This document shows positions 1 through 27,800 of a stretch of 64,000 bases of DNA, piece after piece. Each line of letters starts with the position of its first letter. The first letter of the stretch is position 1. The translations under genes and the position numbers were made by a program. Source of the DNA: a virus (taxonomy: Duplodnaviria; Caudoviricetes); the IMG/VR virus record IMGVR_UViG_3300020472_000021, positions 3,145 through 67,144 of that record; one strand, written 5' to 3'. The notes beneath the pieces were generated by a model, which was not told the origin of the DNA, searched no databases, and worked only from the letters and a program-made list of their open reading frames with translations.

Positions 1-190
1 GTGCAACCTCTAACGCTCCTCTGACTGCCTCCTGACCCTGATCTATAAGACTATAGAGTTCTCCTCTAGTATATGCATAGTCCTTATCCCTATCTTCTAC
101 ATCATCCTTAGATTCTTTCTTGACTACTTCAGGTTCTGGTACAACATCAAGATTGAGAATATTCTCCATATTGTCTTCTAGGTTATTCAT
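1..190 (-). CDS. gp16: terminase small subunit (runs off window edge, N-terminal part only)
   Basis: Own translation from ATG at 190: MNNLEDNMENILNLDVV...DKDYAYTRGELYSLIDQGQEAVRGALEVA, resembling cyanophage gp16; directly follows gp15 as in T4 gene order. Confidence 0.75.
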   Translation of the reverse strand, partial: MNNLEDNMENILNLDVVPEPEVVKKESKDDVEDRDKDYAYTRGELYSLIDQGQEAVRGALEVA

Positions 191-192
191 AA

Positions 193-996
193 TTATAAGT
201 ATGTAATACCTTCATTAAATCCGAAATCATCATCTGCTGTTACTAGTATGTCATCAGCAGCATCAATGTTTCCGTCTTGGTTAATGTCAGTCTTTGCTTT
301 AGGTGTATATGTACGAGTAATGGTTCTTCTACTTACCGCAGCATCACCAATAGTCTCGTGAATAATTGCCTTGTTAATAACATCAGATGTACTGTAAGGA
401 CCGTACATGTATGTCTTAAGAGTGAAGTTAAGTGTATATGTAATCCACCTTCTGTTTAAGAAACTTTCATCCCACTCATCTTCGTAGTTAATATTATTTA
501 AAACGATTGCTATATCTCTCTTCTCATTCATATCGGGAATCATATTCAATGTTATTGAAAATGATGGTTGGAAATAAGGAAGAATTGATTCTAATATTTG
601 TAGGGCATCATCTTGTGACTGTGCAATGATACCTAATTCAAATCCAAGATTGTAAGGTACTGGTGTATACTGAACTCTTACTTCATCTTGATCATCATTA
701 ATAATAGTTTTATACTTCTGTATAGGAGAAGTCTTTCTTTGAGGATCATAATCAACACTGTTCATCTCAAAGTAAAGACGAGGAACAGTAATAGAAACCT
801 TACGTGTCGCAGACACCATCTGTTCTAAACGAACAAGAAACTTCTGTCTGGGACCATAAGCTAAAGGAACCTTACTCTCCTCAAGGACAGCTCCTGTGCT
901 TGGATCTTTCTTCTTTACACTAATGTTATTGAAGAGAGTACCAAAAGCAATAATTGATTTACGAGTTACCTCGTTATAAAAATGTGATCCTAACAT
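193..996 (-). CDS. gp15: tail sheath stabiliser / tail completion protein
   Basis: HFYNEVTRKSIIAFGTLFNNI, KVPLAYGPRQKFL, PVPYNLGFEL, QILESILPYFQP motifs; synteny gp13-14-15-16. Confidence 0.92.
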   Translation of the reverse strand: MLGSHFYNEVTRKSIIAFGTLFNNISVKKKDPSTGAVLEESKVPLAYGPRQKFLVRLEQMVSATRKVSITVPRLYFEMNSVDYDPQRKTSPIQKYKTIINDDQDEVRVQYTPVPYNLGFELGIIAQSQDDALQILESILPYFQPSFSITLNMIPDMNEKRDIAIVLNNINYEDEWDESFLNRRWITYTLNFTLKTYMYGPYSTSDVINKAIIHETIGDAAVSRRTITRTYTPKAKTDINQDGNIDAADDILVTADDDFGFNEGITYL

Positions 997-1880: not shown

Positions 1881-1881
1881 T

Positions 1882-2694: not shown

Positions 2695-2707
2695 TAGATA
2701 CTAAAAA

Positions 2708-2734
2708 TCCCTTCATACTATTTAGTAGAAGGGA
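2708..2734 (-). terminator. hairpin terminator with late promoter (CTAAATA, 2719-2725) embedded
   Basis: + strand TCCCTTC-A-TACTA-TT-TAGTA-GAAGGGA inverted repeat; T-run follows on - strand; upstream of gp13. Confidence 0.65.
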
Positions 2735-2742
2735 CTTTATGA

Positions 2743-2952: not shown

Positions 2953-2958
2953 ATCTAA

Positions 2959-8119: not shown

Positions 8120-8321
8120 CTAGAACTTTATTAATAAATAAACCTTCGTTGTCACTATGTTCTATCAAGAGATTCTTATTCTCCTTACAGATTTCTCTGA
8201 GTCTTACTCTATCTAAATCCTTGTCTTTATTTTCAAGATTATACTTTTCGTACATCATGAAATGTATGACAGGTAGAAGCTCATCATACCTCTCTGCATC
8301 AGCGTGCCAAACACCTGCCAT
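8070..8321 (-). CDS. hypothetical protein
   Basis: 83-aa ORF abutting upstream stop, GGAG-type RBS just upstream. Confidence 0.65.
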   Translation of the reverse strand: MAGVWHADAERYDELLPVIHFMMYEKYNLENKDKDLDRVRLREICKENKNLLIEHSDNEGLFINKVLDEYGTKVLDPTEYKAS

Positions 8322-9999: not shown

Positions 10000-10002
10000 T
10001 GT

Positions 10003-11289: not shown

Positions 11290-11311
11290 GACTACCTATC
11301 TTTCTTAATTG

Positions 11312-11318
11312 TATTTAT
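11312..11318 (-). promoter_or_regulatory. T4-type late promoter ATAAATA
   Basis: Matches gp55 late consensus TATAAATA core, ~22 nt upstream of ATG 11289. Confidence 0.7.
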
Positions 11319-11671
11319 GACTTAGGATATTTATCTTTAACAGCAGCGACAGATTGATACCACTGACCGTCTTTTCCAGGAACTAAGCCTAATTCCATAT
11401 CATGCCAAAGTTTATCTAGTTGTTCTTCAATTTGTTCATATTCAAATTTTCTTTTGAAGTCATAAGTGGCTTCAGTTATGACACGTTTAACAACTTGCTG
11501 TTGTTGAGTATCCCAAACAAAATCAGGAGCCTGCGTGCCATCATCCTGTACCTTATCATAAGGTCCATTTACCCATTCAAAATCTTCATGAGTTTCAAAC
11601 GTAGGTTCGTTTGAATCTTGTATCTGTTGTACAGTTCCACTTTTTTTATGTACTAATGAAATATATGCCAT
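11315..11671 (-). CDS. tail-fibre chaperone-like protein
   Basis: RKFEYEQIEEQLDKLWHD...WYQSVAAVKDKYPK, a motif typical of small fibre-associated proteins; start at ATG 11671. Confidence 0.65.
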   Translation of the reverse strand: MAYISLVHKKSGTVQQIQDSNEPTFETHEDFEWVNGPYDKVQDDGTQAPDFVWDTQQQQVVKRVITEATYDFKRKFEYEQIEEQLDKLWHDMELGLVPGKDGQWYQSVAAVKDKYPKS

Positions 11672-11676
11672 TTTTA

Positions 11677-12432
11677 TTAACTGTAATTGTATACAATAAC
11701 GCAACCGCCACCGCCGTTGCTATTATCATGAGCAAAACTATTCTGTGAATAGTATCCATGACCACCACCAGAACCCCACTGACCATGAGTAATTTCCTCT
11801 TGGTTGTTATAATAATGGTGTGAAGAACCAGCTTTGTGCCAGAAACTAGAACCAGCAACTCCTTCATTGTTTGAACCGTGAGTCATTTCACCACCACCGC
11901 CAGGTAAGTTTATATCACCACCTGAAGCATTTCCACCAGGTCCGCCCTGATGAGGTACATCTGATTGACCACCTTGTCCACCACCAGCAGTACAGTAAGA
12001 TCCAAAGGAAGATGTACCTCCCGAACCACCTCTACCACCGTTACGAGCATAACCTCCTCCACCACCATATGTGTAGCTGACAGAGTTTACACTAGAAACA
12101 TCAATCCATTTGATAGCAGTAGCTCCACCGCCACCTCCAGCACCACGATAAGTGTTATCATTGACTCTGGCCCCGCCACCACCACCAGTTACATAAACTA
12201 AGACGTGACTACATCCAGAGGGTTTTGTCCAAGTACCAGAACCACCACTGGTGGATTTAGAGTTCCAAGTACCATTCTGTGAAGTATAAACATTCATACC
12301 CAACAACGATCCAGTAGATGCCATTGCAGTATAACCGCTTCCATTCCACAGTCTCAAATCATCATTTTGCAGATCCATTATATTAACTCCTGCGGAGTTT
12401 TGGATCTGGTCTACTTTTAATATTCCAGCCAT
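11677..12432 (-). CDS. glycine-rich distal tail fibre protein
   Basis: MAGILKVDQIQ N-terminus; GTWTKPSG..VLVYVTGGGGG, GGTSSFGSYCTAGGG Gly-rich domain. Confidence 0.75.
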   Translation of the reverse strand: MAGILKVDQIQNSAGVNIMDLQNDDLRLWNGSGYTAMASTGSLLGMNVYTSQNGTWNSKSTSGGSGTWTKPSGCSHVLVYVTGGGGGARVNDNTYRGAGGGGGATAIKWIDVSSVNSVSYTYGGGGGYARNGGRGGSGGTSSFGSYCTAGGGQGGQSDVPHQGGPGGNASGGDINLPGGGGEMTHGSNNEGVAGSSFWHKAGSSHHYYNNQEEITHGQWGSGGGHGYYSQNSFAHDNSNGGGGCVIVYNYS

Positions 12433-12441
12433 ATTTCCTCG

Positions 12442-15400
12442 TTATACGATAGCCCAGTTACCACCACTATTTATAGTGACCGTGTAACCGTTTGCAATTG
12501 TGATCGGACCTGCACTGACACAGTTTGTGTTAGCAGGTATTGTTACGTTTTCAGAAACTGTGTTTCTGTTAGACTTAAAGATTCCATAAGTATCAATCCA
12601 CATCGTATCACCATTGATATAACCAATGCCTTCAAAGTTAGAAGTACCACCAACATGTAAATCATATGATGGGTTTGCTTTGTTTATACCAACCTTAGAT
12701 ATTCTATGGATATCATTTCCGTTAGAAGATTCTGTCCAACGTGACGTAACGAATTCAGCATTGTTCTGGAAGAACTGACCGTTAAGGTTCATATCACCTT
12801 GTACGGTTAACTGATAAGTTCTTGCAGTGTTGTTGTTTGGATCAGTACCAGAGTTTGTAGTAGTGTTAATAGAAACTCTATTATTACTACCATCAACAGC
12901 AATTGCTGGTGTAGTATTCCAAGTTGTTCCACCGTTATCAGTAGATGCTTGAATTGCAAAGAAATGGTTACCTACTGTCTGGTTACTAACTCTGAAGTTT
13001 CTATAAGAAGAAGAACCACGTAGGTTTATTCTTGCACCAGAGTTATCATCATCCTGATCAATGTTAAGTGTACCAGTAATCATTGCAGTACCAGCAACTT
13101 CTAATGCGAAGTCTGGTTCACGGTTGATACCAACACCTAAGTATCTAGATGCAATAACATCACCAACAACACGTAAATACAGATCTGATTCTGTACCTTC
13201 CATGGTGAATCCTTCACCATACTCACCAGCTGGTGATGCTGAATCTGCATGGTTGTATCTAAGAGTACCAATTTGAGAGTAACCACCAGTATGGTCGGAG
13301 AATCTAATTCTTGCACCTGTAGCAATAGCATTGGTTGCTGATTTAAGGAATATACCTTCATCACTACGAAGATCAAGAGCAGCAGAAGGAGAAGTACCTA
13401 CGTTAATACCAACTCTATTAGCACTTGCATCAACAAATAGAACTCCAGCATCAACATTCAAATCATTACTTAGAGTTGTAACTCCAGTAACACCAACTGT
13501 ACCACCGATACTTAAGTTAGAAGATCCACCAGCAAGTGTTAGTGAACCAGTCATGGTATCACCAGTCTTCAATACGTTAAGTGATGCAGCACCTGATAAT
13601 GAACCAGTAATAGTACCAGCAGAGAAGTTACCTGAACCATCTCTCTTAACAGCAGTATTGGCAATGTTATTAACTTGGAAAGTAATATTACCTGCGTTCC
13701 ATACAGTAGCACCATTAACTTCTAAACCATCAGCATTAGCAACTTTAACTTCTAATGTACCAGAACCATCAGTTGTAGTACCACCAGCAGCAATCAAAGC
13801 AACGTTGTAGTTTGATGCAGCAGATGCAGAAGAGTTGAAGTAAACAGCAGGACTAGATGCTTGACCATCCTTTCTACCAAGTCTTAGTTTTGCAGTACCA
13901 GAATCACTCTCAAGTCTAGTTACCTCGAAGGTGTTATCATCTTCAATAGTAAAGTCTTGGAATGGAACTCTGTTACTTGCAGTACCAATTGTCAGAGCAC
14001 CAGTAAAGTTACCAGAAGTTAATCTACCAATTAGAATACTGTAATCATTGAAGTTATCATTAACATCATCGTTAATAGTAATAGCATCAATTGTGTAACT
14101 ACCAACTGCCTGTGCGTTAGCATTGTATAGGTTAACTGGGTTACCTGGTGTGAATGGTGAACTGTTAAGGATTAAACCTTGTACATAAATCTGATACTTA
14201 GCATCACCATTAAATGTCTTGACTACTAATCTATCTTGATAAGATCTAGGACTAATGAATCCTGGTAGTCTGTTATCAGACATAATACCAGAGTTCAAGT
14301 TGTAAGCATTCTGATACCAATCACCTTGTCTATTATCTAATCTGTCAGCATCAAGATCTGAATCTACACCATCGTTAAGTGATGTCCAAACCTTACCCCA
14401 TGAACCGAATGTAGAAACACCTGTACCAGAACCTCTCATCCACATGTTGTCATTATCTGTGAATGCAAGTTGTCTAATACCACCGTAAGTAGCATCGAAA
14501 CCAGAACCACCATTTCTGATAGTCATAACTAGGTTTCTAGTACCACCATCTGAAAGACTGTTAGCACTGTTGAATACTGTGTTAGCGATAACACCTTCAA
14601 CGAAGTTGTTTGGAGCAGGGTTTGATGTGGGGTTGTTAGTACCTGTGATCAAACGAATTGTATTCTGAGATGAACCAGAAATACTAATGTTATATGTACC
14701 AGATAATCTATCAGTAGGTAATGTACCAGAGTTCTGGTTACCAGAGTTTAGATAGAACGCACCTTGAGCACCGTCAAGAAGGTCAGCATCTAATCCACTG
14801 TCAGCACCAGTTTTAAGTACAACAGAACCATTACCTGCTAAACCAATATCAAATTGTGATTTCTTATATCTCGAAACACCAATAGTACCGTAGAGGTCAG
14901 CAGAAATTGTTTGATCTGTAACTCTCTGAACGTCAATAGCAACGTTAGCATACTGTCTATTAACAGTACTTACCTTAGCCTCTAATACAAGACCAGATCC
15001 AGTACCTATTGCTGTTGGAGCAACTGTAATTGAGAAGTCAGCACTATATCCTGAACCACCGTTAGTTACAGTTACATCAGTTACTGCGTTACCAGATACA
15101 ACAAAGTTTGCCTTTAGATCAACACCTGATCCACCTGTTAGAGGAATATCGTAGTATTGACCATTAGTGTATCCAGAACCACCATTAGAAATGATGACAT
15201 CATCAACAAAGTTACCTTGAGTATATGTTGACTCGAAGGTCACTGGGGAAGCACCCCTTTCAAATTCAATAATCGTACCAGAAGCAATAGTCTGGTTGAT
15301 TGGATTGTTGATTGCAACTGTAGTTAATCCACCAGCAGTTACAATACCTGTAATATTTGTGTTTGCCTGTATTCCATTAACAGTATTCTTAACCTCGTGA

Positions 15401-18400
15401 CCAATCAGAGCATTCTGGTTTGTTTGGAATATCAGTGAGTTAGTTCCACTAGTTGCCTGTGAATATAATTGAGCAAAGTATCTATTTTCTGCACCTTTCA
15501 ATGATTGCATTGCAAGTGCATAGTTCTGGTCACCTCTTAAGAATGTGAAGGAGTTAGCAGCACCACCTGATGCCAATCTGTCTGTTTCAATAACACCAGA
15601 TGTAATATCAGCAGCAGCAATTTGGTTAGTAGATAGTGATACCCAGTTAGCAGCAAGAGAACAAGATGTGTTAACAACACGGTTAATATTAACTGTATTA
15701 GCAGTTGGTGTTGTACTATCGTCGAATGTATCGGTATCTTCAATCTTAAGCTTGTTAACAATAGTACCATATACTCTACTTTCAATTAAGCAGTTACCTT
15801 GTGCTTGTGTTCCAGCTCCTGGAGGAGCAGCGAATGTGATTGTTGGAGCAGTAGTATATCCTTTACCACCAACATATCCATTAAAGTCAATAATGGTAGC
15901 AGTAACAACTTCACCGTTAGCAATAGTACATGTAACAGAAGCAGCAACCGCACCACCACCAGGATTACCTCCTGAAACTGTGACAGCAGGAGCAATTGTA
16001 TATCCAGAACCAGAGTTAGTAACGTTTACTGTATAAACAACACCAGTTCTATATTCAGTAGACTGAATACGACCACCAGATACACTACCTTCAAATATAT
16101 CTCCAATAGTAAATGCTAGGTTGGAATCAAATGCAAATCCTAAGAACAGACTTGTTAGGTCATTGTTCAAGATGAAGGACTGTGAAGTATCCTGCTGAAT
16201 CGCAATGTCACCAGCAAGTGCTCCCTCTAGTGCCAATCTTTCTGGTTCGTCAGCAACAGTGTAAACACTGAATGGTCTCAAAGCAGGAATCTGGTCAACA
16301 GATATCTTACCTGAGTCTGTTAGTTCAACCAATGCTCTTGGAACAGCGTTCGTAGAGTATGGCTTGTTAATGAATGGACCTAAGTTATTTGTAATGTAAT
16401 CTTTAACTGCCTTCTGAGTAGGTAGTTTAGAGTCAGATGCGTTTGCACCACCCAATGTGTTGGAGTCATCGAATCCAGTAACAACAACGTCACCACCTTT
16501 CAGTTTCAAGAATTCAACTTCAGAGATCGTAACCGTACCAGTGAAGGTAATGTTACCAGTTCTGTTCTCAATTCTAGCGAATGTACCAACCTTGAAGTCT
16601 CCTAGTTCGTCAGTACCAGAAACATATACACGACCATAATTCTGTGATACCTGTTCGTTTGCTTCGATCTTAGTACCACCGTTCTCAGGTAGAGCAAGGT
16701 AGTTAGTACCAGATCCAGCAAATTCCCATGTATGAGATGATGAGTTAACAATAGATGGTCTGTGTAGGTTGATAGTCTTACCAAGTAATACACTTGTTGA
16801 AACTGCGTTACCAGTAGATACATCAGTCAGATCCATTCCACCACCAGTACCATCATCAATGGTTAACTGAGCAGAGAAAGGAGGACCAACGGTAACTGCT
16901 GAAACTACATCAACAAAGTATTCAATTTCAGTATTAGTATTGGTATAACCATTAATCTTAACAACGTAGTGCTCTAGTGGTTCTCTTCCTAATCCACTAA
17001 CTGTAAGAATTGTTCTACCAGTAGGTGTAGAAGATACGTTAGAGATAGTTGCAATATCAAATACGTATGGAGTAGCACTAAATCCAACACCTCTTAATGC
17101 ATACTGACCGAAGTTAGTAGCAGAGTTAGTAATAGATGCATAACCACCAGACTCACAAAGAACACCATCTGCACAGAAGATAACGAATACAGAAACCAAC
17201 TGAACATAACCATCATTGATAATCTTGTATCCAGTACCACCAAAGGAAACGATAGTGAATGCAGATGCAACCATCGACTTACCCTGATTAGGATAAGTTG
17301 CACTACCATCTAACTCTAGTCCAGTAAACGGACAGTTAGGTTGCTTAACCTTAGCACCATCAATAAATGCACCATTACCACCTAAGAAGGAGATAACAGA
17401 AGAGTTCTGAGTATATGGAGATGCCTCAATGATTGGATATTCATCATAGTCAGAACGAACAGCAGATCTAACATTGTTAGAATCATAGATGTAACTATCT
17501 GGATATGATGTTAATAATGCAGTATCATATAAAGTACCTGTTGTTTGTGTAGTTGCACCAGGAAGGATTGTTCCATCTAAGATGTCTTCTAACAGATCCA
17601 TTTCTGTAGCAATAGAAGAAGCAATGTTAGCACACTTAGGAGTACCACCTGTGTATAGAGTAATGTTCCAATCTTCGTACTTAGGAATTGGAGAAGTAGT
17701 TACAACCTGATCGTAAACGATAACAATACCATTTGCTAATCCACTTACGAATGCGTGTGTAGAAGCACTAGCAGATCCAGCAGCACCTACGTTACATGTA
17801 ACAGTGGTATTACCACCAGCAGATGATACGTTAGTAATTTCAAGTGATTTACCATATGCTTTCTTATCAGCAGCAACTCTTCTTGGATAAGAGTGCTCAG
17901 TAGCATTACTATCTACATCACAAGTAAACTTAAGTGCGTTCTCTCTAAATGCAATTCTATGTGATGTCTTAACTGCCTTAGAAGGATCTGGGAATGTTAC
18001 TGTTAAATTACCAGTAGATGCTGTGTAAGTAGCAGCATTTGCTGTTCCAACATGAGGAACATTTGAAGCAGCACCAACGTTAACAGTAATAGTTGTTGCG
18101 GTTACTGCACTAATAGCAAGAGTTGCTCCAGATGCAGGGTCAGTTGCTCTTGGATAAGCATGGTTTGTAGAGTTAGCATCTAAGTCACAAGTAAATGTAA
18201 CAGCACCATTTGCGATCTGTACAGTGTTACTTGTTGTTAAACTATGAGATCCAATCTCCAATACCATATCACCAGATGTAGCATTGTAAGTTGTTCCAGC
18301 AGCTGCTGTGACAGCACTACCAGCATTAGGAGTAATTCCTCCAGCAGTTCCACTTACGAATGTATGAGTTCCAGCATATCCAGTCCAGTTAGAAAGTGCG

Positions 18401-21400
18401 TTGATTGCGTACTCTTTGACCTTCTGATAAGCGTAAAGGGTTTGAGCAAGCATTGATGGTTGAATACCAGTTAACGCTGTTCCTGTGAAGTATAACTCTG
18501 CTCTAGAAACGATACCAGAGTTACCACCAAGTACAAGGTCACGAACCAATCCACCAAGAATCAATCCAACGTCTCTACGACACTTTCTTTGATTAAGATC
18601 GGATAGATTTGCATTAGGATATTTCTTCTCTACATCTAACAATACCTGATCAGCAATGAGATCTTTGTTACGTGCAATTAAGTATGCACCATCAAGGTAT
18701 ACGTTAGCAGCATTATTTGATAGAACATCTACGAAGAGATATGAAAGAGTATCAATAGCAGCTCTTACATCATCACAACGTGGGCTACCAGCAGTAGTGT
18801 TGATAATTGTTGTATCTCTATACTGGGTTAAAGCAGTATGCTCTGCGACATATAGAGGATCTGTAGTCAATCTACTATCACCAGTATGCCAGTTACACAT
18901 AGCATAGATTGCTAATTCTCTAGCATATTCTATACCACGTACAGTTTGAATAATTTCATTCTCTACATATTCTACTTTTGCTCCAACAATATATTTCTTA
19001 GCAGCTTCTATAACGTTATGGTTAGAACCATACTCTAAGTCTCTTATAACAGCATTCAAGAAATGTCTAATGTCCTGCTTACACTGTTCATCACCATTAG
19101 GTTGATTGTTATTACCAGAAGTAGGAGGACTGAATGATGGATATGTCTTTTGTCCAGAAGAACAAGACATTAAAATACTATCAAGTTTTATAGTAGCATC
19201 TTCTGCAATATTTGGAACAGCAGCAGTTACAGTAACTGTAGCAATACCAGTTATAGCATTATCATATACAAAGTCTGAAATATTATAAGAACTACCACCA
19301 AAATCTACAGTACCACCACTAACATAAGTGTGTACTTCGGGTGTTTGTCCTAAGTATACTTTAAATGTTGTACCACCAGTAGATAGACAATTTGAAGCAG
19401 CTCTTACAAATGTATGAACAGTTTGAGGTCTGTTCTTAACACAATTTGTGTCAGCAGTAACAAATGTATGAGCAGTACTTGGTCTAAATTTAATTCCGTT
19501 AGTTGATCCACTTATAAATGTGTGAGCATAAGATCCACCACTAACAAGACCACCAGATGTAGCACTAACAAATGTGTGTGAATAGTTACCACCTGAAACT
19601 ACGAATCCCTGATTAGCAGATACGTATACGTGTGCGGATGTATCAGAAGATGTACCAACATTAACTGTTATAGTAGTTGCTGTTGTTGCAGTGATAGAAA
19701 CAGATGTATTGTATGCTGGATCGTCAGCAGTTGCACCACCTTGACCATTTGCACGAGGATAAGAGTGCTGTGTAGCATTACTATCTAATCCACATGTAAA
19801 TGTAATACCTTCATTTGTAAGGCTAACACCTTGTCCAGTGTTTAAATTATGAGTACCAATGGTCATCTCAAGAAGACCAGTAGCAGGATCGTAAGTAGCG
19901 TTAGTTGGTGTGTACTCTACAGATGGAGAAGCACCTACATTAATTGTTATATCACCAGATTGATGAGTTAATCCACCAGTAATAGCAGAAACAAATGAGT
20001 GTGTAGATGTATCACTTGAAGTACCAACATTAATTTCAAATGTATCTGTAGCAACTTGTGATACTGCTAACCAATCACCACCACCGCCAGGATCTGAAGT
20101 TCTTGGATAAGAGTGCTGAGTAGCATTATTATCTAAACCACATGTGAATGTTAAAGAGTTATTTCCTAATCTAACTCTATCACCATTAGAGAATCCATGA
20201 CCAGCAATAGTTAATTGCATTACACCTGTTGAAGGATTGTAAGCAGCACCTGTTACAGTGTGGGCAGTATTACCAACAGCAATAACTTCTAAAGAAGAAT
20301 CATATGCTCTATCTCTCTTTTGTTTGATTCCATCAGTAGTAGCAGAAACAAATGCGTGAGTAGTCTGGTTTGTAGAAGGAACTGTGTCAAGAACTTGAAT
20401 TGTATATGTGTTAAGAGTTACATTCTGTACAGGAATCCAATGACCGCTGATTGGGTCAGTTGCTCTTGGGTATGTGTGGTTTGATCCGTTATTATCTTCT
20501 AAACAAGTGAATGTTAATGAGTTATCATCAAGTTTAATAAGATCCCCATTTGACATTCCATGATTAGGAGTTGTTAATGTTAATAGACCAGTTGAAGGAT
20601 TGTATGCAGCGTTAGTTGCTGTATGAGTATCAATGTTTGTTCTTGGATAACTCTTATTAGCAGTATTACCATCCATTGCACAACTGAATGTTAGAGCACC
20701 ATCAGCAAGTTTGATGTTATCTCCAACTTGTAAATTGTGAGCACCAAGAGTAAGAACCATATTACCAGTAGATGCTGTGTAAGAAGCATTAGTTGGTGTG
20801 TATGTTACCTGTGGTGATGTACCAACGTTAACAGTTAAAGTACCGTCTTGTCTCTTTAATCCGTTAGATACAGCAGAAACAAATGTATGAGTTGAAGTAT
20901 CCTGAGATATACCAACGTTAATATCAAAAGTATTTGTCGTTATATTACCAATCTGTAACCATCTTCCACTTGCTTTATCATATCCAGCACGAGGATAGTC
21001 ATGATTAGAACCATTACTGTCTAATGCACAAGTAAGTCTTAATGAATCATCATCAAGTTTAATATAATCTCCATTACTAAATCCGTGACCAGAAACAGTT
21101 AATTGTAAAACACCTGTCGCAGGAGTATATGTTGCATCAGTTACTGTGTGTTGTGTCTCTCCAACTGCTGTAACTCCAATTGCTTGGCCAGAAGTAGGGT
21201 CAATATCTAGTCTAGGATAACTATGCTTAGTCGCATGACCATCCATAGCACAAGTAAATGTCAATGCATCATTGTCTATCATGATGCTATCGCCTGTGCG
21301 AATTCCATGCTGCCCAACTGTCAATACCATGACACCTGTAGCAGGATCATATGTAGCACCACTTGCTGTAAAGTCTCTATTAGTACCAGCAGCACCAACG

Positions 21401-24348
21401 TTAACAGTAACACTAGTTGATGTAGAACCAGTAATAGCAAGAGATCTACCAGAAGCTTGATCTTTTAATGCACGAGGATACTTCTTAGTAACCTGATTAC
21501 CATCCATTGCACACTTGAAATGTAATGAATCATTGTCAATAGTGATACTTTCACCAGTTGATAAGGAATGAGTTCCAAGTGTTAATGTTAAATCTCCAGT
21601 TGTAGGATCATATGCAGCAGCAGTAGGTGTCCATTCATCATTTGCAGGTGACACACCAACATTAACAGTAAATGTATCTGTAGTTGTTGCTGTAATAGGA
21701 AGTGCTTTTGAACTAGCAGGGTCTGTTGCTCTAGGATATGCGTGCTCGGTAGCATTACTATCCATAGCACAAGTAAAGGTTAAACCACTATCAGCAATTC
21801 TAATACCTGTTCCTTCTGAGAATGAGTGACCTGCTATTGTAAATACTAAATCTCCAGTTGCAGGATCGTATGTTGCATTAGTTGGTGTGTAGTTTGAAGA
21901 TGCTGTACCACCAATTTCATATGCAGCATAGTAACTTTTTGCAAATTGTGAGTTAAGTCTACCAACTGCTTCTTCTGCAATATACTCTCTGTTATTTCTA
22001 ATCAACAAAGAAGCATCCTGATATCTTCTATTAACAGGAGTTGCTATAGGGAAACTGTTTGGAGAGTTTAGTAGTGATAATGTAACAGTTTTAGAATATG
22101 TTTTAACTGTTGCAAATTGACCAGGACTGAGGTTAGCATCAACAATCGCTGGCATCTTCTTAGGAATAACAAATCGTCTGCAACGACCATCATTATCTTC
22201 TAAGACTTTATAAATTCTTTGCTTACCATTTAATTCTGATAAGTCTGGACTTGAAGTTGGAAGACCTTCAATTAAAATTTCTTGACCGTCTTTATATTCG
22301 TGAGTGTTAGTTCTACCAACAAGAGCATTAGTGTAGAATATAATACCACCCACATCTTCAGCATTACCAAACTGTGAGTTTTGGAAACCACCTGTAGCTA
22401 TAGCAGCATCTCCTTGTTGTGAGAAGTCAATTCTAGAAATAGGTAACGTTGAAGTATAATCTTCATCTACTGATACAACTTCACCTTCTGCCCTGATTGA
22501 CTTAATGGCAGTGGTATCAACTGTTTCAATTTGTGGTGTTGCTGCATTAATCGTAAAGGAACTAGCACTAGAAGTATCCCAACCAGGAGAATTAAGAATA
22601 GGAACGAATGTTACATCCCAGTAAGTAGGAGCATTTGTAGTATCAATTGCTATTACTTGATAATAACCTTGAGTAAAGTTAGTATCATTAGTATCATCAA
22701 GGAAAACATATGTACCAGCAGGGGCAGCAGTTGAAGGATCCTGTGTAAATCTTAATTTGTTAGTACCAGCAGCCTGTGAAATATTCAGACTTATAGCACC
22801 ACCAGTACCAGCAGATATAATATATTCAAATCGTTCACCTTCAACAAAGGAACCACTTGTTAAGTTAACATCAATAGTACCATTAATATATGCACTAGCA
22901 CCAGTTGTTTGAGCAAAATCTACAGCAATAATTTTTGCTCTAGCACCAGTGTTAACACCAACCACTTCTAGGTTGTTTACTAGATTTACTAGACCTGTGT
23001 TCTGTTGGAATGTAACACGGAACTGATCTGGACCAAAGATTTGGTGACCTATAGGATAACTCGTTCCAGCATCACCATTAGCATCAACATCAATAGCAAC
23101 ACGCTGCTTGTCATCAAAGACCATCGCGTAGTCCCAAGTAGCAACTGGGTCACCATTGGAGTCAATCTGGTCTCTAAATGTTACACCAATAACGTAGTTC
23201 TTATCACCAAACTTAAATACGTGCTTACCTGGATTAGAAGGACGGATAATAACCAAACGTAGGTTGTCACCAACGATTGATGCATCAGGTGGAATTGATA
23301 TTGGGTTGTCTTCTACATAGTCTCCACCCGAAACAATAATTGTTTCTTTAACACCAGGAGTAGCCCATGCTAACTGACATGCTTTTTTAATAGTTCTTAC
23401 AGGGTTTACCGCAGATCGACCATCGTTAAGGTCAGAACCAATCTGTGATGAAACATAAACACGACCACCAACGTCATTCGTTGCTAGGTTAAGTACGTAT
23501 TCTGTAGTTGCAATCTTATCTGATCTATCACCTAACAGTGGTGTAATAGATCTTGGGAATATACCAGCTTCTCCAGTTTCTCCATACTTAAATTCTAATT
23601 GGTCTACAACGTGGAAACCAATATGTTTTAGATCAACATCACCATTTTTTACAATTCCATCAGCGTGTGTTGGAGCATCACTACCTGTTTGTCCAGCAGT
23701 AACTGCTTGATAAACGTTAGCACCAAAATATCTGTAAGAATCCTTCTGGATAATAACATTAGCTGCCCATGGAATACCAGTATTATTTTGATACGTCTTT
23801 AAATTCGGTCCCCTTAAGTTTGCATCAGGAGTAACGAAGTTATCAATATCAAGGTTTAGAATTCTAGCAGTATCAGAAATGATAGATGTAGAAGTTCTAA
23901 TAGCACCGTTGATATCAAGTTCGTAATCAACTGTGTCAAGAACAGCATCAGCAGTTGCACCAGCACCGCCTCCACCACTTATAGTTACCGCAGGAGCAGT
24001 TGTATATCCGTAGCCTGGATTATTAACAGCAATAGAAACGACTTTACCGTTGAAAATAAACGCGGAAGCAAGCGCATTAATTCCGTCAGAACCACCAGGA
24101 GGCGCAACTGTTACAGACGGTTGAGTCGTATAACCAGCACCACCATTAGTGATATCAATGTTGTTAATTCTTTGTCCAGTTCTATTAATACCTACACGAG
24201 GTAATCCAGTTGCTGTATCGAGTTCTGTACGAAGAATCTCTCTTTCTAGAGCTCCTGTACCCCCTCTAATTGTTAATTCATTATCACCGATAAGTTTCGG
24301 GTTGACACCCCTAAACTTCTCTTTATCGGAATTAATATGCAAACTCAT
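12442..24348 (-). CDS. giant (3968 aa) tail fibre / virion structural protein
   Basis: GxGYT.AP.V repeats, VYVS..GSDLNDG..P.RTIKKA pectin-lyase-like start, ten ~90-aa YxPxTG/TFTC/YPR repeats, SGLDADLLDG fibre motifs, C-terminal SAGPITI...W.IV connector. Confidence 0.85.
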   Translation of the reverse strand: MSLHINSDKEKFRGVNPKLIGDNELTIRGGTGALEREILRTELDTATGLPRVGINRTGQRINNIDITNGGAGYTTQPSVTVAPPGGSDGINALASAFIFNGKVVSIAVNNPGYGYTTAPAVTISGGGGAGATADAVLDTVDYELDINGAIRTSTSIISDTARILNLDIDNFVTPDANLRGPNLKTYQNNTGIPWAANVIIQKDSYRYFGANVYQAVTAGQTGSDAPTHADGIVKNGDVDLKHIGFHVVDQLEFKYGETGEAGIFPRSITPLLGDRSDKIATTEYVLNLATNDVGGRVYVSSQIGSDLNDGRSAVNPVRTIKKACQLAWATPGVKETIIVSGGDYVEDNPISIPPDASIVGDNLRLVIIRPSNPGKHVFKFGDKNYVIGVTFRDQIDSNGDPVATWDYAMVFDDKQRVAIDVDANGDAGTSYPIGHQIFGPDQFRVTFQQNTGLVNLVNNLEVVGVNTGARAKIIAVDFAQTTGASAYINGTIDVNLTSGSFVEGERFEYIISAGTGGAISLNISQAAGTNKLRFTQDPSTAAPAGTYVFLDDTNDTNFTQGYYQVIAIDTTNAPTYWDVTFVPILNSPGWDTSSASSFTINAATPQIETVDTTAIKSIRAEGEVVSVDEDYTSTLPISRIDFSQQGDAAIATGGFQNSQFGNAEDVGGIIFYTNALVGRTNTHEYKDGQEILIEGLPTSSPDLSELNGKQRIYKVLEDNDGRCRRFVIPKKMPAIVDANLSPGQFATVKTYSKTVTLSLLNSPNSFPIATPVNRRYQDASLLIRNNREYIAEEAVGRLNSQFAKSYYAAYEIGGTASSNYTPTNATYDPATGDLVFTIAGHSFSEGTGIRIADSGLTFTCAMDSNATEHAYPRATDPASSKALPITATTTDTFTVNVGVSPANDEWTPTAAAYDPTTGDLTLTLGTHSLSTGESITIDNDSLHFKCAMDGNQVTKKYPRALKDQASGRSLAITGSTSTSVTVNVGAAGTNRDFTASGATYDPATGVMVLTVGQHGIRTGDSIMIDNDALTFTCAMDGHATKHSYPRLDIDPTSGQAIGVTAVGETQHTVTDATYTPATGVLQLTVSGHGFSNGDYIKLDDDSLRLTCALDSNGSNHDYPRAGYDKASGRWLQIGNITTNTFDINVGISQDTSTHTFVSAVSNGLKRQDGTLTVNVGTSPQVTYTPTNASYTASTGNMVLTLGAHNLQVGDNIKLADGALTFSCAMDGNTANKSYPRTNIDTHTATNAAYNPSTGLLTLTTPNHGMSNGDLIKLDDNSLTFTCLEDNNGSNHTYPRATDPISGHWIPVQNVTLNTYTIQVLDTVPSTNQTTHAFVSATTDGIKQKRDRAYDSSLEVIAVGNTAHTVTGAAYNPSTGVMQLTIAGHGFSNGDRVRLGNNSLTFTCGLDNNATQHSYPRTSDPGGGGDWLAVSQVATDTFEINVGTSSDTSTHSFVSAITGGLTHQSGDITINVGASPSVEYTPTNATYDPATGLLEMTIGTHNLNTGQGVSLTNEGITFTCGLDSNATQHSYPRANGQGGATADDPAYNTSVSITATTATTITVNVGTSSDTSAHVYVSANQGFVVSGGNYSHTFVSATSGGLVSGGSYAHTFISGSTNGIKFRPSTAHTFVTADTNCVKNRPQTVHTFVRAASNCLSTGGTTFKVYLGQTPEVHTYVSGGTVDFGGSSYNISDFVYDNAITGIATVTVTAAVPNIAEDATIKLDSILMSCSSGQKTYPSFSPPTSGNNNQPNGDEQCKQDIRHFLNAVIRDLEYGSNHNVIEAAKKYIVGAKVEYVENEIIQTVRGIEYARELAIYAMCNWHTGDSRLTTDPLYVAEHTALTQYRDTTIINTTAGSPRCDDVRAAIDTLSYLFVDVLSNNAANVYLDGAYLIARNKDLIADQVLLDVEKKYPNANLSDLNQRKCRRDVGLILGGLVRDLVLGGNSGIVSRAELYFTGTALTGIQPSMLAQTLYAYQKVKEYAINALSNWTGYAGTHTFVSGTAGGITPNAGSAVTAAAGTTYNATSGDMVLEIGSHSLTTSNTVQIANGAVTFTCDLDANSTNHAYPRATDPASGATLAISAVTATTITVNVGAASNVPHVGTANAATYTASTGNLTVTFPDPSKAVKTSHRIAFRENALKFTCDVDSNATEHSYPRRVAADKKAYGKSLEITNVSSAGGNTTVTCNVGAAGSASASTHAFVSGLANGIVIVYDQVVTTSPIPKYEDWNITLYTGGTPKCANIASSIATEMDLLEDILDGTILPGATTQTTGTLYDTALLTSYPDSYIYDSNNVRSAVRSDYDEYPIIEASPYTQNSSVISFLGGNGAFIDGAKVKQPNCPFTGLELDGSATYPNQGKSMVASAFTIVSFGGTGYKIINDGYVQLVSVFVIFCADGVLCESGGYASITNSATNFGQYALRGVGFSATPYVFDIATISNVSSTPTGRTILTVSGLGREPLEHYVVKINGYTNTNTEIEYFVDVVSAVTVGPPFSAQLTIDDGTGGGMDLTDVSTGNAVSTSVLLGKTINLHRPSIVNSSSHTWEFAGSGTNYLALPENGGTKIEANEQVSQNYGRVYVSGTDELGDFKVGTFARIENRTGNITFTGTVTISEVEFLKLKGGDVVVTGFDDSNTLGGANASDSKLPTQKAVKDYITNNLGPFINKPYSTNAVPRALVELTDSGKISVDQIPALRPFSVYTVADEPERLALEGALAGDIAIQQDTSQSFILNNDLTSLFLGFAFDSNLAFTIGDIFEGSVSGGRIQSTEYRTGVVYTVNVTNSGSGYTIAPAVTVSGGNPGGGAVAASVTCTIANGEVVTATIIDFNGYVGGKGYTTAPTITFAAPPGAGTQAQGNCLIESRVYGTIVNKLKIEDTDTFDDSTTPTANTVNINRVVNTSCSLAANWVSLSTNQIAAADITSGVIETDRLASGGAANSFTFLRGDQNYALAMQSLKGAENRYFAQLYSQATSGTNSLIFQTNQNALIGHEVKNTVNGIQANTNITGIVTAGGLTTVAINNPINQTIASGTIIEFERGASPVTFESTYTQGNFVDDVIISNGGSGYTNGQYYDIPLTGGSGVDLKANFVVSGNAVTDVTVTNGGSGYSADFSITVAPTAIGTGSGLVLEAKVSTVNRQYANVAIDVQRVTDQTISADLYGTIGVSRYKKSQFDIGLAGNGSVVLKTGADSGLDADLLDGAQGAFYLNSGNQNSGTLPTDRLSGTYNISISGSSQNTIRLITGTNNPTSNPAPNNFVEGVIANTVFNSANSLSDGGTRNLVMTIRNGGSGFDATYGGIRQLAFTDNDNMWMRGSGTGVSTFGSWGKVWTSLNDGVDSDLDADRLDNRQGDWYQNAYNLNSGIMSDNRLPGFISPRSYQDRLVVKTFNGDAKYQIYVQGLILNSSPFTPGNPVNLYNANAQAVGSYTIDAITINDDVNDNFNDYSILIGRLTSGNFTGALTIGTASNRVPFQDFTIEDDNTFEVTRLESDSGTAKLRLGRKDGQASSPAVYFNSSASAASNYNVALIAAGGTTTDGSGTLEVKVANADGLEVNGATVWNAGNITFQVNNIANTAVKRDGSGNFSAGTITGSLSGAASLNVLKTGDTMTGSLTLAGGSSNLSIGGTVGVTGVTTLSNDLNVDAGVLFVDASANRVGINVGTSPSAALDLRSDEGIFLKSATNAIATGARIRFSDHTGGYSQIGTLRYNHADSASPAGEYGEGFTMEGTESDLYLRVVGDVIASRYLGVGINREPDFALEVAGTAMITGTLNIDQDDDNSGARINLRGSSSYRNFRVSNQTVGNHFFAIQASTDNGGTTWNTTPAIAVDGSNNRVSINTTTNSGTDPNNNTARTYQLTVQGDMNLNGQFFQNNAEFVTSRWTESSNGNDIHRISKVGINKANPSYDLHVGGTSNFEGIGYINGDTMWIDTYGIFKSNRNTVSENVTIPANTNCVSAGPITIANGYTVTINSGGNWAIV
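19372..21900 (-). repeat. eight nested ~90-aa repeat domains inside the giant fibre gene
   Basis: Repeated Y(D/N/T)xxTG..H..G..TFTC.MD..HxYPR..TVNVG...HTFVS; two further copies at ~17720-18380. Confidence 0.85.
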
Positions 24349-24896: not shown

Positions 24897-27800
24897 TTAT
24901 TTCTTGGTAATGTTGGATACAATAGTAACCTTGACGGTATGAGTGTTAGTAACGTTAGTTGCTAAACTAAAGTTTAATCTAACTTTATTTTGTGCGGTAT
25001 ATTCAAAAGTAGAATCAATTAACTTACCACTTGTTTGCAGATTACCATATTCACTATGATAAACATTTGCTCCATCATCAGTAACACCAAATTCAACAAA
25101 TTCCTTATGATTAGTATTGGTATTTTCAGCAACTATAACAACCTTCGCACCTTTTTCTGTTGCAACTTCATAAATGTCAGTGTTACCAACGTTAATTGAT
25201 CCCTTGACCATTTGTACTATATCAGTTTTGATCTTTGCATCAGCAAGTTCAAAATCTTTAAGGTCGCTATCGAAGATTTTAACTCCATTATAGTTACCTG
25301 TACCGAATCCAGTATTTAGATAAACATCACCAAGATAATCAAGTCTAAGAACTGGTTCAGTGTATATACCACTAGCAACACCAATATCAAAGTTTTGCTT
25401 ACTGGTGTATAAGAATGTCTTAGATGCCTGAGTATTATCTAGGGTAGTTGCAGCACTATCAAATGTCATCATAGATGCTGTAATTTCAAACTCATCAGAA
25501 GTCTGACTTCTAATAGTATCTACAGCATAGAAATCTAATGCGGTAGTAGTGAGTCGCATAGACTCAGCACCATCGTTATAGAAGAATAAAGTATTCTCAT
25601 TAGATCCAGCAGATAGTTCTGGAATAATATATGTATTCTGATCAACGTCTCTTACACCACCCAGAGAACCCCAGTTAGTTCCATCATAACCTTCATACTG
25701 TGAAGTAGTGCTGTTATAACGTAGAGATCCTTGAACTGGTGTACCTCTTTCTGCTGTAGTACCAGCAGGAACAGCAAATGTTGTATTTGTATTAACAACA
25801 ACTTTCTTACCAGCATTAGGTTGAATAATTAAATCATTAGTATCTGTAGAAATCTTATTACCAGAGAATCTAAGATCATCATTGATACTAAGAGCAGTTG
25901 TACTGTTGTTAGGACCAATCTTAACAAGGTTAATATCTTCAAAGGTTAAATCAGCCACCGCCAATCTATCCCATAACATATCAGTAGTACCGTTTGCCTG
26001 AGTACCAGATGTATGAGTTGGTTCGTTACCTGAAGTAGCAGATGTACCAGCAGATGTTACCTTATACAGGTTGTTCTTATACTTAACATAATCATCAACT
26101 GCATATGGAGTATTAGCAGCCCATTCTGTAAATGCAGGTGCAGTAGTATTAATCGAACGTAATTTCTTAGTATTAACAAACTCTACGTAATTTGGAGAGA
26201 TACGAATAGAGTTAACATTATCGTTAATGAACCAGTGAGTGTTATCGTTAGCACCAACTGTTTCTTCTGCCAATAGATATGTGTTTCCATCAAGGTCTCT
26301 TACACCTCCAAGAGATGCCCAAGATGTTGTGTTTTGATTATAACCCTCATAAGAGTTAGAATCTGTGTTGTATCTAATACAACCATCCTTAACAATACCT
26401 GCTGTTGGTCTAGCTGCTGTATCACCAGAAGGAACTGCAAGAGCAGTGGTAGTAGCTACGTCAACAATTCTTCCTGTATCAGGTGATAGTTTAATATCGT
26501 AACCAGCAAGAGAATTGATAGATGCATCAGCAGCTAATATTTTTAAGTTATCACCCAATCTAATATCAGGAGAATTGAAGAAACCACCCATAGTGGTATC
26601 TCCAGTAGATACTATAGTACTCCAAGTAGTTCCAAACTTAACATTCTTTGATGTCAGAGTAATATCATGAGAGGCAGGATCATCAACTGCAATCGTCATC
26701 GAAGTTGCAGCAGTAATTGATGGGATTGCAGCAGTAGTTAATGTTGCAGTATCAGAACTTAAATTGTTTATAGTACCAGTTGTAATAGTACCTGTTGAAC
26801 TTTGTAAATCTACAGCACTGAAAGCACCTGTTAATACATTACCATTAATTATTTCTTGTACAACAACATCAGTAACTTGTAATTGGAATCCACTACCAAA
26901 TGTCTTAGGGTTAACTGTATTAATAGTAAATGATGCCTCATCATTATCATCGCCACCCTCATTGGCGTGAGTCGATTGCTCAGTACCACAATAGTAATAA
27001 AGAGTTGGTGTATTATCAGTAATTTTAATCGTTAGATCAGTTCCTGTTCTTGTTACACCTGTGATATATTCAGCACCAAAGATATTAAGAACTACAGCAC
27101 CAGCAGTTGTTGGACTCTCACTAAGAGTTATTTGTGTACCACTATCAACAGAAGCAATAACAGTCGTAGAAGGAATAATACCATCACCACTAACTTTAAC
27201 AACCTTCATACCTGCCAGCATTCCAGATGTAGAATTAAGAGTTACTTGTTTAGTTGTAGTTGCTAGTGTCGCAGATATATTCTCAAATCTGCTAGGAGCC
27301 CACTGACCATCTCTAAACTGTGATAGAGAGAATACGTGACCACCTAAAGTTCCCGAACTTAAATCAAACTTATAACTGTTACCAGCATAGAATGTCGCAC
27401 TAGGTGTATACTGAACACCATTACCATCTCCTTTGTCAATATAGAAACGATATTCATCAGTAACAGTTGCAATCTTATCTCCTGTAGTTGGAGTACCAAC
27501 ATCCTTTACCAAATAATCATTAGCATTGATTGATAACTTATCACAAATTATCTTCTGTATGAATCCACCATTAGCAACAATTTTTCTAATAATAACAGCA
27601 GTTTGAGCATTACCAACGCTACTAACTGTCATTACAATATCATCAGCAGGAGATGCACCACCAACTAAGTTACCAGTAATAGTGATAGTATCATTTGCTT
27701 GATAAAAAGCACCAGAAGAAGTTGTAGTTATTGTAGCAGATAACACTGCTCCAGTTGGACTACGACTAACATCAAAGGTAGCATCAACACCATTATTATT

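Follow-up and report, generated by a model that had tools for sequence, protein, structure and literature searches.

A probable tree of recursively inserted barrel domains in a giant tail-fibre-like virion protein

A giant tail-fibre-like protein of a virus of the class Caudoviricetes very probably carries a tree of six-stranded beta-barrels, each of about 100 amino acids (aa), built by recursive insertion of barrels into the loops of other barrels. The protein is encoded on the minus strand of a 64,000-nucleotide stretch of DNA, positions 3,145 to 67,144 of the IMG/VR record IMGVR_UViG_3300020472_000021, which we call the window and whose coordinates are used throughout. The nesting grammar of the tree, together with its conservation and variation among relatives, was established computationally, and two confident structure predictions place the distal strands, delivered by the chain well after the rest of their domain, in the predicted barrels. 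Domain insertion that is nested more than two or three levels deep is, to our knowledge, rare.

Nested order of elements in the fibre

The barrel domain consists of four elements: A, at positions 1-53, reads Y.P.TG ... F.C ... YPR; A' takes up positions 54-69; B, at about 70-80, reads ..VNVG; and C, at 84-100, combines H.F.V.A with a second, short strand. Positions are those of a 100-position profile built from complete, uninterrupted copies; all copies match this single profile, and the opening elements of D1 to D8 are 43-64% identical pairwise. Eight copies of about 100 aa lie within aa 818-1657 (window 19378-21897), and motif positions and profile matches agree that their order is nested. 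D1, D2, D3 and D5 each come without their own last strand, and four orphan closing units follow with a period of 18 aa, beginning at His1591, His1609, His1627 and His1645. D3 is wrapped around D4, and D5 around D6 and D7: the profile coordinates stop and then resume, and in the predicted models strands bridge the interruptions. The inserted domains are themselves hosts, in the series D0>D1>D2>D3>D5>D6/D7/D8, which amounts to six levels; superpositions of known barrels back levels D0, D1, D2 and D5 in a model of the window protein and level D3 in a model of a smaller, related module. Four of the eight tree domains are discontinuous, and the contiguous, head-to-tail order of beads on a string is not what we find.

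A first-pass annotation, made from the DNA letters, had described eight nested rather than tandem copies, with D1, D2, D3 and D5 left open and matched by four orphan closers, D3 being split by D4, D5 by D6 and D7, and D8 being complete. Motif positions and profile coordinates reproduce this order, down to the resumed strands GTLTVNVG and GDITINVG. The gene and the parts of the fibre between aa 777 and 2212 are listed below in chain order, with the evidence for each; model residues are those of the window model, in which E marks a strand.

12442..24348, minus strand: fibre ORF (open reading frame) P0001, 3968 aa, tail-fibre-like virion protein (ORF list, translation, phrog_5342, orthologues)
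21934..22020, minus strand: first helix of helical-repeat copy 1, aa 777-805 (model helix 2-31 by DSSP; aligns to aa 1885-1910)
21910..21933, minus strand: strand A' of the predicted base domain D0, aa 806-813, YYAAYEIG (strand E32-39; superpositions of barrels from the Protein Data Bank, PDB, on model 30..950-963 join it to aa 1659-1739)
21658..21897, minus strand: D1 body (A, A', B), aa 818-897, left open, without a closing strand next to it (profile 1-81, 99.3 bits; model range 42/43..883 pairs with C1)
21397..21639, minus strand: D2 body, aa 904-984, open (profile 1-79, 80.5 bits; model range 128-130..865/867 pairs with C2)
21148..21378, minus strand: D3 elements A and A', aa 991-1067, cut before strand B (profile 1-53 and 56-75; long strand E282-293 continues into D4)
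20845..21147, minus strand: D4, complete, aa 1068-1168, within the A'/B hairpin of D3 (profile 1-99, 126.4 bits)
20821..20844, minus strand: D3 strand B resumed, aa 1169-1176, GTLTVNVG (sequence; strand E390-400 continuous from the last strand of D4)
20629..20808, minus strand: D5 element A, aa 1181-1240, cut just after YPR (profile 1-53, 79.5 bits)
20311..20622, minus strand: D6, complete, aa 1243-1346, inserted after YPR of D5 (profile 1-99, 135.3 bits; PDB barrels on model 464-466..570-573)
20260..20310, minus strand: D5 element A', aa 1347-1363 (sequence; strand E578-589)
19957..20259, minus strand: D7, complete, aa 1364-1464, within the A'/B hairpin of D5 (profile 1-99, 121.3 bits; best fold matches on model 585-590..688-693, Z up to 8.9)
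19933..19956, minus strand: D5 strand B resumed, aa 1465-1472, GDITINVG (sequence; strand E686-696)
19585..19911, minus strand: D8, complete, aa 1480-1588, in the B/C loop of D5 (profile 1-98, 100 bits; model range 702..812)
19540..19584, minus strand: deferred closing unit C5, aa 1589-1603, closes D5 (strands E817-822 and E827-829; three PDB barrels on 406/407..829)
19486..19530, minus strand: deferred closing unit C3, aa 1607-1621, assigned to D3 (strands E835-840 and E845-847; by elimination and by the homologous 216/217..423 pair in the module model)
19432..19476, minus strand: deferred closing unit C2, aa 1625-1639, closes D2 (strands E853-858 and E863-865; model ranges ending at 865/867)
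19378..19422, minus strand: deferred closing unit C1, aa 1643-1657, closes D1 (strands E871-876 and E881-883; model ranges ending at 883)
19132..19374, minus strand: elements B, C and A of the predicted D0, aa 1659-1739, circularly permuted (weak profile match to positions 8-61, 6.1 bits; same order without a tree in S-CAM4 and S-RSM4; model ranges 30..950-963)
18979..19089, minus strand: second helix of helical-repeat copy 1, aa 1754-1790 (alignment with aa 1922-1958 scores 69)
18475..18696, minus strand: helical-repeat copy 2, aa 1885-1958, whose 11-aa linker is PNANLSDLNQR (helix-pair alignment)
18058..18372, minus strand: D9, circularly permuted with the closing strand first (C-A-A'-B), aa 1993-2097 (profile pieces 75-99, then 3-84)
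17713..18045, minus strand: D10, complete, aa 2102-2212 (profile 1-99, 81.4 bits; '()' at the same place in L070-L082)

D10 is the only copy kept in S-CAM4-type orthologues. While the eight tree domains of the first-pass inventory stand, that inventory had missed D9, D10, a fifth closing strand and the permuted base domain. The fifth strand, HTYVSGG (aa 1673), comes after a B-like strand, FKVYLG, the pair spanning aa 1660-1679, and an A-like element follows at aa ~1690-1739, where the profile match is weak (6.1 bits). Together with YYAAYEIG (aa 806-813), aa 1659-1739 are predicted to form a ninth barrel, D0, in the permuted order A'-B-C-A. In the fibres of S-CAM4 and S-RSM4, '...YNISG' joins directly to 'SFDIYLG ... 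HTY/NTW..SGG', which an A-like element follows (the join running from aa ~815 to ~1659). D0 therefore exists without the tree, and the window tree is an insert of ~845 aa in the A'/B hairpin of D0.

D0 itself lies between two helices that are repeated downstream, the second copy having an 11-aa linker (aa 1911-1921) in its place. The two copies of helix 2 align with a score of 69, reached by none of 500 shuffles, and those of helix 1 with a score of 35, reached by 2 of 500. The tree had been proposed to sit in a loop of this helical repeat, opposite a sister copy with a short linker; the repeat and the linker are as described, but it is D0, and not the tree directly, that occupies the loop.

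The order of parts suggests how the chain would run. The helical repeat would carry the permuted D0, whose A'/B hairpin would carry D1; D1 would hold D2, and D2 would hold D3, each in its B/C loop; D3 would host two domains, D4 in the A'/B hairpin and D5 in the B/C loop; and D5 would host D6 after YPR, D7 in its A'/B hairpin and D8 in its B/C loop. The returning chain would then give the last strands of D5, D3, D2 and D1 in last-in-first-out order, and D0 would be finished afterwards. The two ends of a barrel lie side by side, so that a whole barrel fits in a hairpin or loop of its parent. Since each parent would be linked to its child by two antiparallel segments and the ends of the tree meet in one hairpin, the tree would form a stiff arm that projects sideways over a length of about six barrels, with the trunk D0-D1-D2-D3-D5-D8 and the leaves D4, D6 and D7. 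Entering and leaving at one hairpin of D0, it would bear no load along the fibre axis.

Balance and variation among relatives

The first-pass annotation had proposed a comparison of nesting among homologues, and its outcome agrees with the nested order. Orthologous fibres carry 0, 4, 8, 9 or 11 domains at the D0 site, and wherever they were counted (4, 8, 9 and 11 domains) open domains equal deferred closers in number. Sf-CH1b reads A A' B, A A' B, A A', a complete domain, B and three C units, after which D0 resumes: four domains, three of them open, and three closers. P0018, which is 74-82% identical, has a ninth domain inside D8, so placed that A', B and C of D8 are deferred; counted by eye, five domains are open and five closers follow. 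This extra domain sits after the YPR of D8 and has the same flanking linkers as D6 in D5, which suggests re-use of a cassette. P0022 holds eleven domains, with six open and six closers (again by eye), one closer being split by a further complete domain. Tree-size differences between the orthologues compared (S-CAM4, S-RSM4, Sf-CH1b, P0018 and P0022) are always balanced units, and the tree would grow or shrink by gain or loss of whole balanced cassettes. Copies of the DNA repeats are 60-89% identical over 27-88 nt and thus give no sign of very recent duplication.

The place of the tree varies as well. Some orthologues, such as L075 (ORF 3544-14616, aa 1161-1707), have a four-domain module after D10 rather than in D0; trees therefore occupy different fibre sites in different phages. 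Written in brackets, where '()' is a complete domain, the pattern '()(((())))' was found 20 times, and 23 of the 62 extracted four-domain modules are at the D0 site. Pieces other than a last strand can also be deferred: in L011, a domain cut before B regains a 'B+C' piece that stands exactly between the closer of its child and the closer of its parent, and L024 has domains that break off at profile positions 20, 26 and 43 and are taken up again at 21, 24-25 and 40. In L006 (8485-9972), a permuted unit of the D9 type interrupts another domain between its invariant Cys and its YPR motif. The insertion sites seen comprise positions ~20-26 and ~43, the point after YPR (53), the A'/B hairpin, the B/C loop, the inside of the C hairpin, and the stretch between the invariant Cys and YPR. 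Single clusters reach about 25-29 domains (L024, ORF 1-13581, aa 648-3700; P0006-P0009; L020-L029). Their parsed depth is 9-11, uncertain by one or two, and the parse of L024 left four domains open and five pieces inconsistent.

The same balance can be followed through the whole family. In 121 related giant proteins, the opening-element profile gave 2114 matches of at least 4 bits and the closing-strand profile 1448, against 0 and 1, respectively, in shuffled copies. The commonest string among the 238 clusters of these proteins is '(((())))', which occurs 31 times singly, 20 times doubled and 4 times tripled. Of 408 distinct clusters, 226 have as many open domains as orphan closers, and 327 show a difference of no more than one (r=0.84). 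A greedy stack parser was then applied, which accepts a resumed piece only if its profile coordinates pick up where those of the uppermost domain in the stack broke off. Of 1936 resumed pieces in 277 clusters, a last-in-first-out parse fits 1268 and a first-in-first-out parse 895; when the order was shuffled 200 times, 913.5±16.6 pieces fitted, with a maximum of 976.

Several positions of the domain are near-invariant: Gly12, His21 (93%), Cys40 (2284 of 2293 distinct opening pieces), Asp43 (87%) and Tyr51-Pro52-Arg53. His88 is present in 1711 of 1719 closing pieces, their detection being biased towards His. On this conservation, Cys40 and His88, with His21 and Asp43, may form a putative metal site that clasps the deferred strand to the barrel. 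At E<=0.001 the family numbers 733 representative clusters (50% identity) among 1.84 billion, and by such searches it appears small and viral. A single-protein scan of 185,579 cellular genomes returned one locus (L163, PBPH01000042.1 3991-13851), on a Red Sea contig of 23 kb that belongs to a metagenome-assembled 'Methanobacteriota archaeon' and encodes a tree 37% identical. This contig looks like phage DNA and is probably a mis-binned cyanophage contig.

Predicted structures and alternative readings

Two monomers were modelled with AlphaFold2: a 570-aa, four-domain module with D0 and helix stubs, taken from L138 (27 sequences; mean pLDDT 87.9, pTM 0.72), and window aa 775-1775 (34 alignment rows; mean pLDDT 81.4, pTM 0.60). 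The orphan units of the window model are strands 817-822/827-829, 835-840/845-847, 853-858/863-865 and 871-876/881-883, the block having a pLDDT of 79-90. Continuous strands at 282-293, 390-400, 578-589 and 686-696 bridge parent and child at the hairpin insertions. Pairings were read from VIA-align model ranges, that is, from the first and last model residues aligned with single-domain PDB barrels (63-82 residues aligned), in two lists of 50 rows per model:

Module, D1+C1: 42-46..460, 10 of 50 rows in list 1 (one of them 38..459) and 3 of 50 in list 2
Module, D2+C2: 129/130..441, 6 of 50 rows in list 1
Module, D3+C3: 216/217..423, 3 of 50 rows in list 2
Module, D4: 291-293..394-398, 15 of 50 rows in list 1 and 29 of 50 in list 2
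Module, D0: 30-36..527-541, 8 of 50 rows in list 1 and 10 of 50 in list 2
Window, D1+C1: 42/43..883, 2 of 50 rows in list 1 and 1 of 50 in list 2
Window, D2+C2: 128-130..865/867, 4 of 50 rows in list 1
Window, D5+C5: 406/407..829, 3 of 50 rows in list 2
Window, D6: 464-466..570-573, 6 of 50 rows in list 1 and 1 of 50 in list 2
Window, D7: 585-590..688-693, 14 of 50 rows in list 1 and 6 of 50 in list 2
Window, D8: 702..812, 2 of 50 rows in list 2
Window, D0: 23-38..939-965, 19 of 50 rows in list 1 and 28 of 50 in list 2

The D5+C5 and D3+C3 ranges had been written down beforehand and were then seen, the former in the window model and the latter in the module model.

The expectation of the first-pass annotation that predicted structures would pair each deferred strand with its domain came true for D1, D2 and D5 in the window model and for D1 to D3 in the module; D3+C3 of the window (expected 217..847), as well as the window D4, is absent from the 100 listed window-model matches. 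This absence is one of several observations that weigh against a recursive tree. The alignment behind the window model is 31-32 deep over D1-D4 and only 6-9 rows deep over D5-D0. Rows that cover the body of D1 or D2 with no distal strand occur 7 times in window list 2 and twice in module list 2 (51-60 residues aligned, Z 2.8-4.8), and such a body still resembles some folds; a handful of further rows have mixed ranges or a very high root-mean-square deviation (rmsd). All structural support comes from predicted models, and the pairings are indirect, being taken from the end residues of superpositions. At family level, automatic detection gives exact balance in only 94 of 238 clusters; in the unbalanced clusters that we inspected, weak closers such as H-T-F-V-R had been missed. 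Another 668 of the 1936 resumed pieces are not coordinate-consistent, which we assume to reflect missed short pieces. The shuffle statistics overstate independence because the clusters are related by descent, and indicate a clear direction rather than a clean probability. Finally, the conservation of His88 is partly circular, since closers were found with a profile and a motif that contain His.

Three other explanations of the bracket order were weighed. The closers of one chain might complete the barrels of a neighbouring chain, so that a fibre oligomer would form a cross-laced bundle with the same bracket counts. Phage fibres are commonly trimeric, the numbers of open domains and closers do not separate completion in cis from completion in trans, and our models were of monomers only. 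The monomer models are nonetheless confident, with pTM values that denote a defined global arrangement without partners. Moreover, the ends of the tree meet in one hairpin of D0, itself in the loop of a helical hairpin, as is typical of a lateral excursion, and last-in-first-out order with coordinate continuity, which knot-free closure in cis demands, is unneeded in trans. Strand exchange between subunits is in our view unlikely. A second explanation holds that D1, D2, D3 and D5 are naturally five-stranded, or complete in some other way, without strand C and that the 18-residue H-x-F-V units form a beta-solenoid or ribbon spacer of their own, an outcome that the first-pass annotation had named as its refutation. 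The regular period of the four units, the 54-nt direct repeat in their DNA and the PDB folds that align to the D1 or D2 body alone speak for such a stalk. However, superpositions of a body with its distal unit include more residues (63-81) and have higher Z than body-only ones, the number of units tracks that of open domains in architectures with 3, 4, 5 and 6 open, and in relatives the returning piece can be 'B+C' or 'A'+B+C', precisely the part missing from the interrupted parent. These results disfavour a separate stalk, which we judge very improbable.

It could also be that the bracket match is a coincidence, produced by a tandem array whose last strands were deleted next to an unrelated short repeat. 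AlphaFold2 can complete partial domains with any compatible strand, copying the complete ones, and automatic parsing is imperfect, as the 94 balanced clusters of 238 illustrate. Degeneration of this kind nevertheless fits poorly with shuffled sequences that give no opening and a single closing element, with a balance that recurs in many architectures, with a last-in-first-out fit exceeding all 200 shuffles by about 290 pieces, and with interrupted domains that resume at the profile position where they stopped; we give it hardly any credence.

Recursive insertion is thus the reading we prefer. The first-pass picture of a chain that runs out and back, clamped by its strands and grown by repeated insertion, finds support in three independent lines, the balance among relatives, the two AlphaFold2 models and the balanced tree differences among orthologues, 'antenna' being a functional guess. 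By analogy, the tree would be a rigid lateral array for adhesion, and its likely role would be to bind glycans or proteins of the host surface multivalently, because the fold resembles an endosialidase beta-barrel and the tree belongs to a tail-fibre-like protein of the host-recognition region.

Related folds, comparable systems and genomic setting

In the models, the domain appears as a small closed barrel with the same strand order as the PF12195 (End_beta_barrel) and PF16190 (E1_FCCH) domains. The best fold match is the phi92 endosialidase barrel (4hiz_A 256-340; Z 8.2-8.9, rmsd 2.1-2.2 A, 81 residues aligned, 17-20% identity). It is accompanied by the FCCH domain of UBA1 (4p22_B; 2v31), with Z 7.5-8.6, rmsd 2.4-2.7 and 73-77 residues aligned (at best Z 8.6, rmsd 2.5 and 77 aligned), by a head-to-tail protein of phage FCWL1 (Z 7.6-7.8) and by FNR-type FAD-binding barrels (Z 5-6.6). 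P22-like coat I-domains (8u10_B, 8i1t_A, 8skg_A, 7sp4_Y) align to D3+C3, D5+C5, D4 and D0 of the models with Z 3.5-4.2. Such Z values fall in the range that the tool calls 'middling' or common, and we therefore claim fold likeness only. No RNA polymerase chain is among the 200 matches listed for the two models, the best matches being other barrels, and a Foldseek search of the whole module model against the PDB returned only generic multi-domain beta proteins (TM <=0.12).

By sequence, the domain matches no Pfam family and no solved structure. The whole protein has no Pfam family at E<=0.1, and D4, D6, D7 and D8, taken singly, match neither PF12195 nor PF16190 at E<=10. Among homologues, and consistent with the fold likeness, three have marginal PF16190 scores of 26.3-29.6 bits, summed, against a cutoff of 29.5 bits, with no single stretch passing, and P0062 has a sub-threshold PF12195 score of 16.3 bits against a cutoff of 35 bits. 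Matches of single domains to DUF7243, Crystall_2 and TIG (14-16 bits) are under their cutoffs and at chance level. Against the PDB by sequence, the tree segment has only portal matches (E=0.38). A match of a 25-sequence domain profile to iota-carbonic anhydrase 7c5x (E=1.1e-5) was rejected as spurious, because it is summed from three stretches, each with an i-Evalue of 7.8-74.

Phage endosialidases share with the fibre the fold and their place in a phage host-recognition protein; their barrel, however, is single-copy and not nested, and the window protein has no Pfam match. The endosialidase barrel is itself an insert in a propeller and carries a sialic-acid site. The E1 FCCH is a small barrel of the same topology but belongs to a eukaryotic enzyme, so that no functional link is implied, and the window protein has no PF16190 sequence match; FCCH is an inserted domain in E1. 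The P22-like coat I-domain likewise is a six-stranded barrel inserted into the host fold of a phage structural protein, but there it is a single insert in a capsid protein, the Z values are low and no sequence relation was found. Several of the look-alikes (endosialidase barrel, FCCH, I-domain) are thus inserted domains themselves, which fits a barrel with adjacent ends. With the tandem Ig-like and FN3 decorations of phage fibres and bacterial adhesins, the tree has in common many copies of a small beta domain in varying number; unlike those contiguous arrays with one linker between neighbours, its domains are discontinuous and nested, parent and child being joined by two chain segments.

A comparable architecture is Si3 of the Prochlorococcus RNA polymerase subunit RpoC2 (beta'), with eight hybrid-motif domains in a six-level recursive insertion, presented as the complex extreme (PMC13114784, Protein Sci 2026); the survey in that article covers 2.7 million classified domains and singles out this six-level cyanobacterial case. 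As far as the accessible text of the article describes Si3, one small beta domain family is inserted into itself there (A1-B1-C-B2-A2 ...) as in the fibre, and in both a multi-level nested rigid arm projects from the host protein, with a domain number that varies between lineages. The domains differ, being of hybrid-motif/sandwich-barrel type in an enzyme in Si3 and six-stranded barrels of endosialidase-barrel/FCCH type in a virion fibre here. In the fibre, moreover, insertions use many barrel loops and include circular permutants. The window tree has eight domains and six levels, while relatives of the fibre have more domains than Si3 (about 25-29) and are apparently deeper (9-11 levels by the parser, an uncertain figure). 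A term search finds neither 'phage' nor 'viral' in that accessible text, and the open-access literature that we searched, with supplements outside its scope, yielded no description of nested domains in cyanophage or other phage fibres. Multi-level nesting within one family being already known from Si3, the fibre tree is a variant rather than a first case: the same kind of architecture in another fold and in a virion setting, possibly nested deeper.

A broader reading would join all these points. A phage-specific, undescribed barrel family would act as a self-hosting cassette, nearly every loop of which accepts further copies, permutants included; its trees of about 25-29 domains and at least 9 levels would be deeper than Si3; a metal site of Cys40, His21 and His88 (plus Asp43) would lock the deferred strands, so that the tree is zipped from the inside out; and cassette gain and loss would be a main route of host-range change in marine cyanomyoviruses. 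As a whole we consider this tentative and somewhat doubtful.

The fibre tree offers a second, independent recursive-insertion system with hundreds of natural variants, among which even close relatives differ in the size and depth of the tree, in insertion site and in circular permutation. These variants are open to tests of whether folding proceeds inner-first or outer-first, of how mis-pairing is avoided, of the stiffness of a doubly connected tree and of its use to the virus. The tree points phage biologists to a defined structural unit that varies in the region with which abundant marine cyanophages recognise their hosts, and it gives protein designers a natural model for stiff, branched scaffolds assembled from a single small domain. 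Long-read metagenomics has recorded several structural variants, insertions and deletions, concentrated in a single structural gene of this region, which in cyanomyophages lies between the VrlC-like and neck genes (PMC12379486). These variants fit cassette gain and loss; the part of that paper available to us does not describe these domains.

Judged by sequence similarity and gene order, the window appears to be part of the structural module of a T4-like cyanomyovirus (Kyanoviridae). The fibre resembles the fibre of isolates over its full length and has a conserved structural-module neighbourhood. A match to phrog_5342 'tail fiber protein' (E=0) spans aa 2174-3968, the C-terminal 1800 aa, and the orthologues in S-CAM4, S-RSM4 and Sf-CH1b are annotated as tail fibre or structural protein, these record annotations being predictions. 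The first 2896 aa matched 444 phage records in a tblastn search, among them, by name, 342 of Synechococcus, 67 of 'Cyanophage' and 22 of Prochlorococcus; the closest, S-CAM4/ACG-2014j, reach 69.7% identity with a coverage of only 70% of this segment. The N- and C-terminal parts of the fibre are 63-73% identical to those of S-CAM4, S-RSM4 and Sf-CH1b, the N-terminal 820 aa being 70-73% identical to S-CAM4 and S-RSM4. Megablast of the region against phage genomes matched no near-identical DNA. A gene for a 166-aa virion protein upstream of the fibre, and giant structural genes around it, are common to the window, S-CAM4, S-RSM4 and Sf-CH1b. Baseplate wedge PHROGs 219 and 438 are matched within the window, and the neighbours of the fibre gene match baseplate-wedge or virion-protein PHROGs.

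The nested barrel domain was not found in other ORFs of the window, which leaves the fibre ORF as its sole carrier. Those ORFs include three further giant ones on the minus strand, at 24897-30353 (1818 aa), 30556-38682 (2708 aa) and 40607-50923 (3438 aa), which match virion structural and baseplate-wedge PHROGs. Directly downstream of the fibre gene, a 251-aa ORF (window 11677-12432, minus strand) matches PHROG 863 'tail fiber assembly' (E 7.6e-75) and may encode a chaperone for the C-terminal part of the fibre. Elsewhere in the fibre, short repeats of the type G-Y-(G/T)-T-x-P-x-V-T-(I/V) occupy aa 56-203 and again aa 2767-2850 (about 23740-24183 and 15799-16050). They produce self-similar BLAST matches across orthologues, match PHROGs 2885 and 460 and are unrelated to the barrels. 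Homologues including P0006, P0029 and P0034 have precomputed Pfam matches to PF14240 (YHYH), PF13385 (laminin-G-like) and PF00502 (phycobilisome protein) elsewhere in the chain; a phycobilisome-like domain would be odd for a virion fibre.

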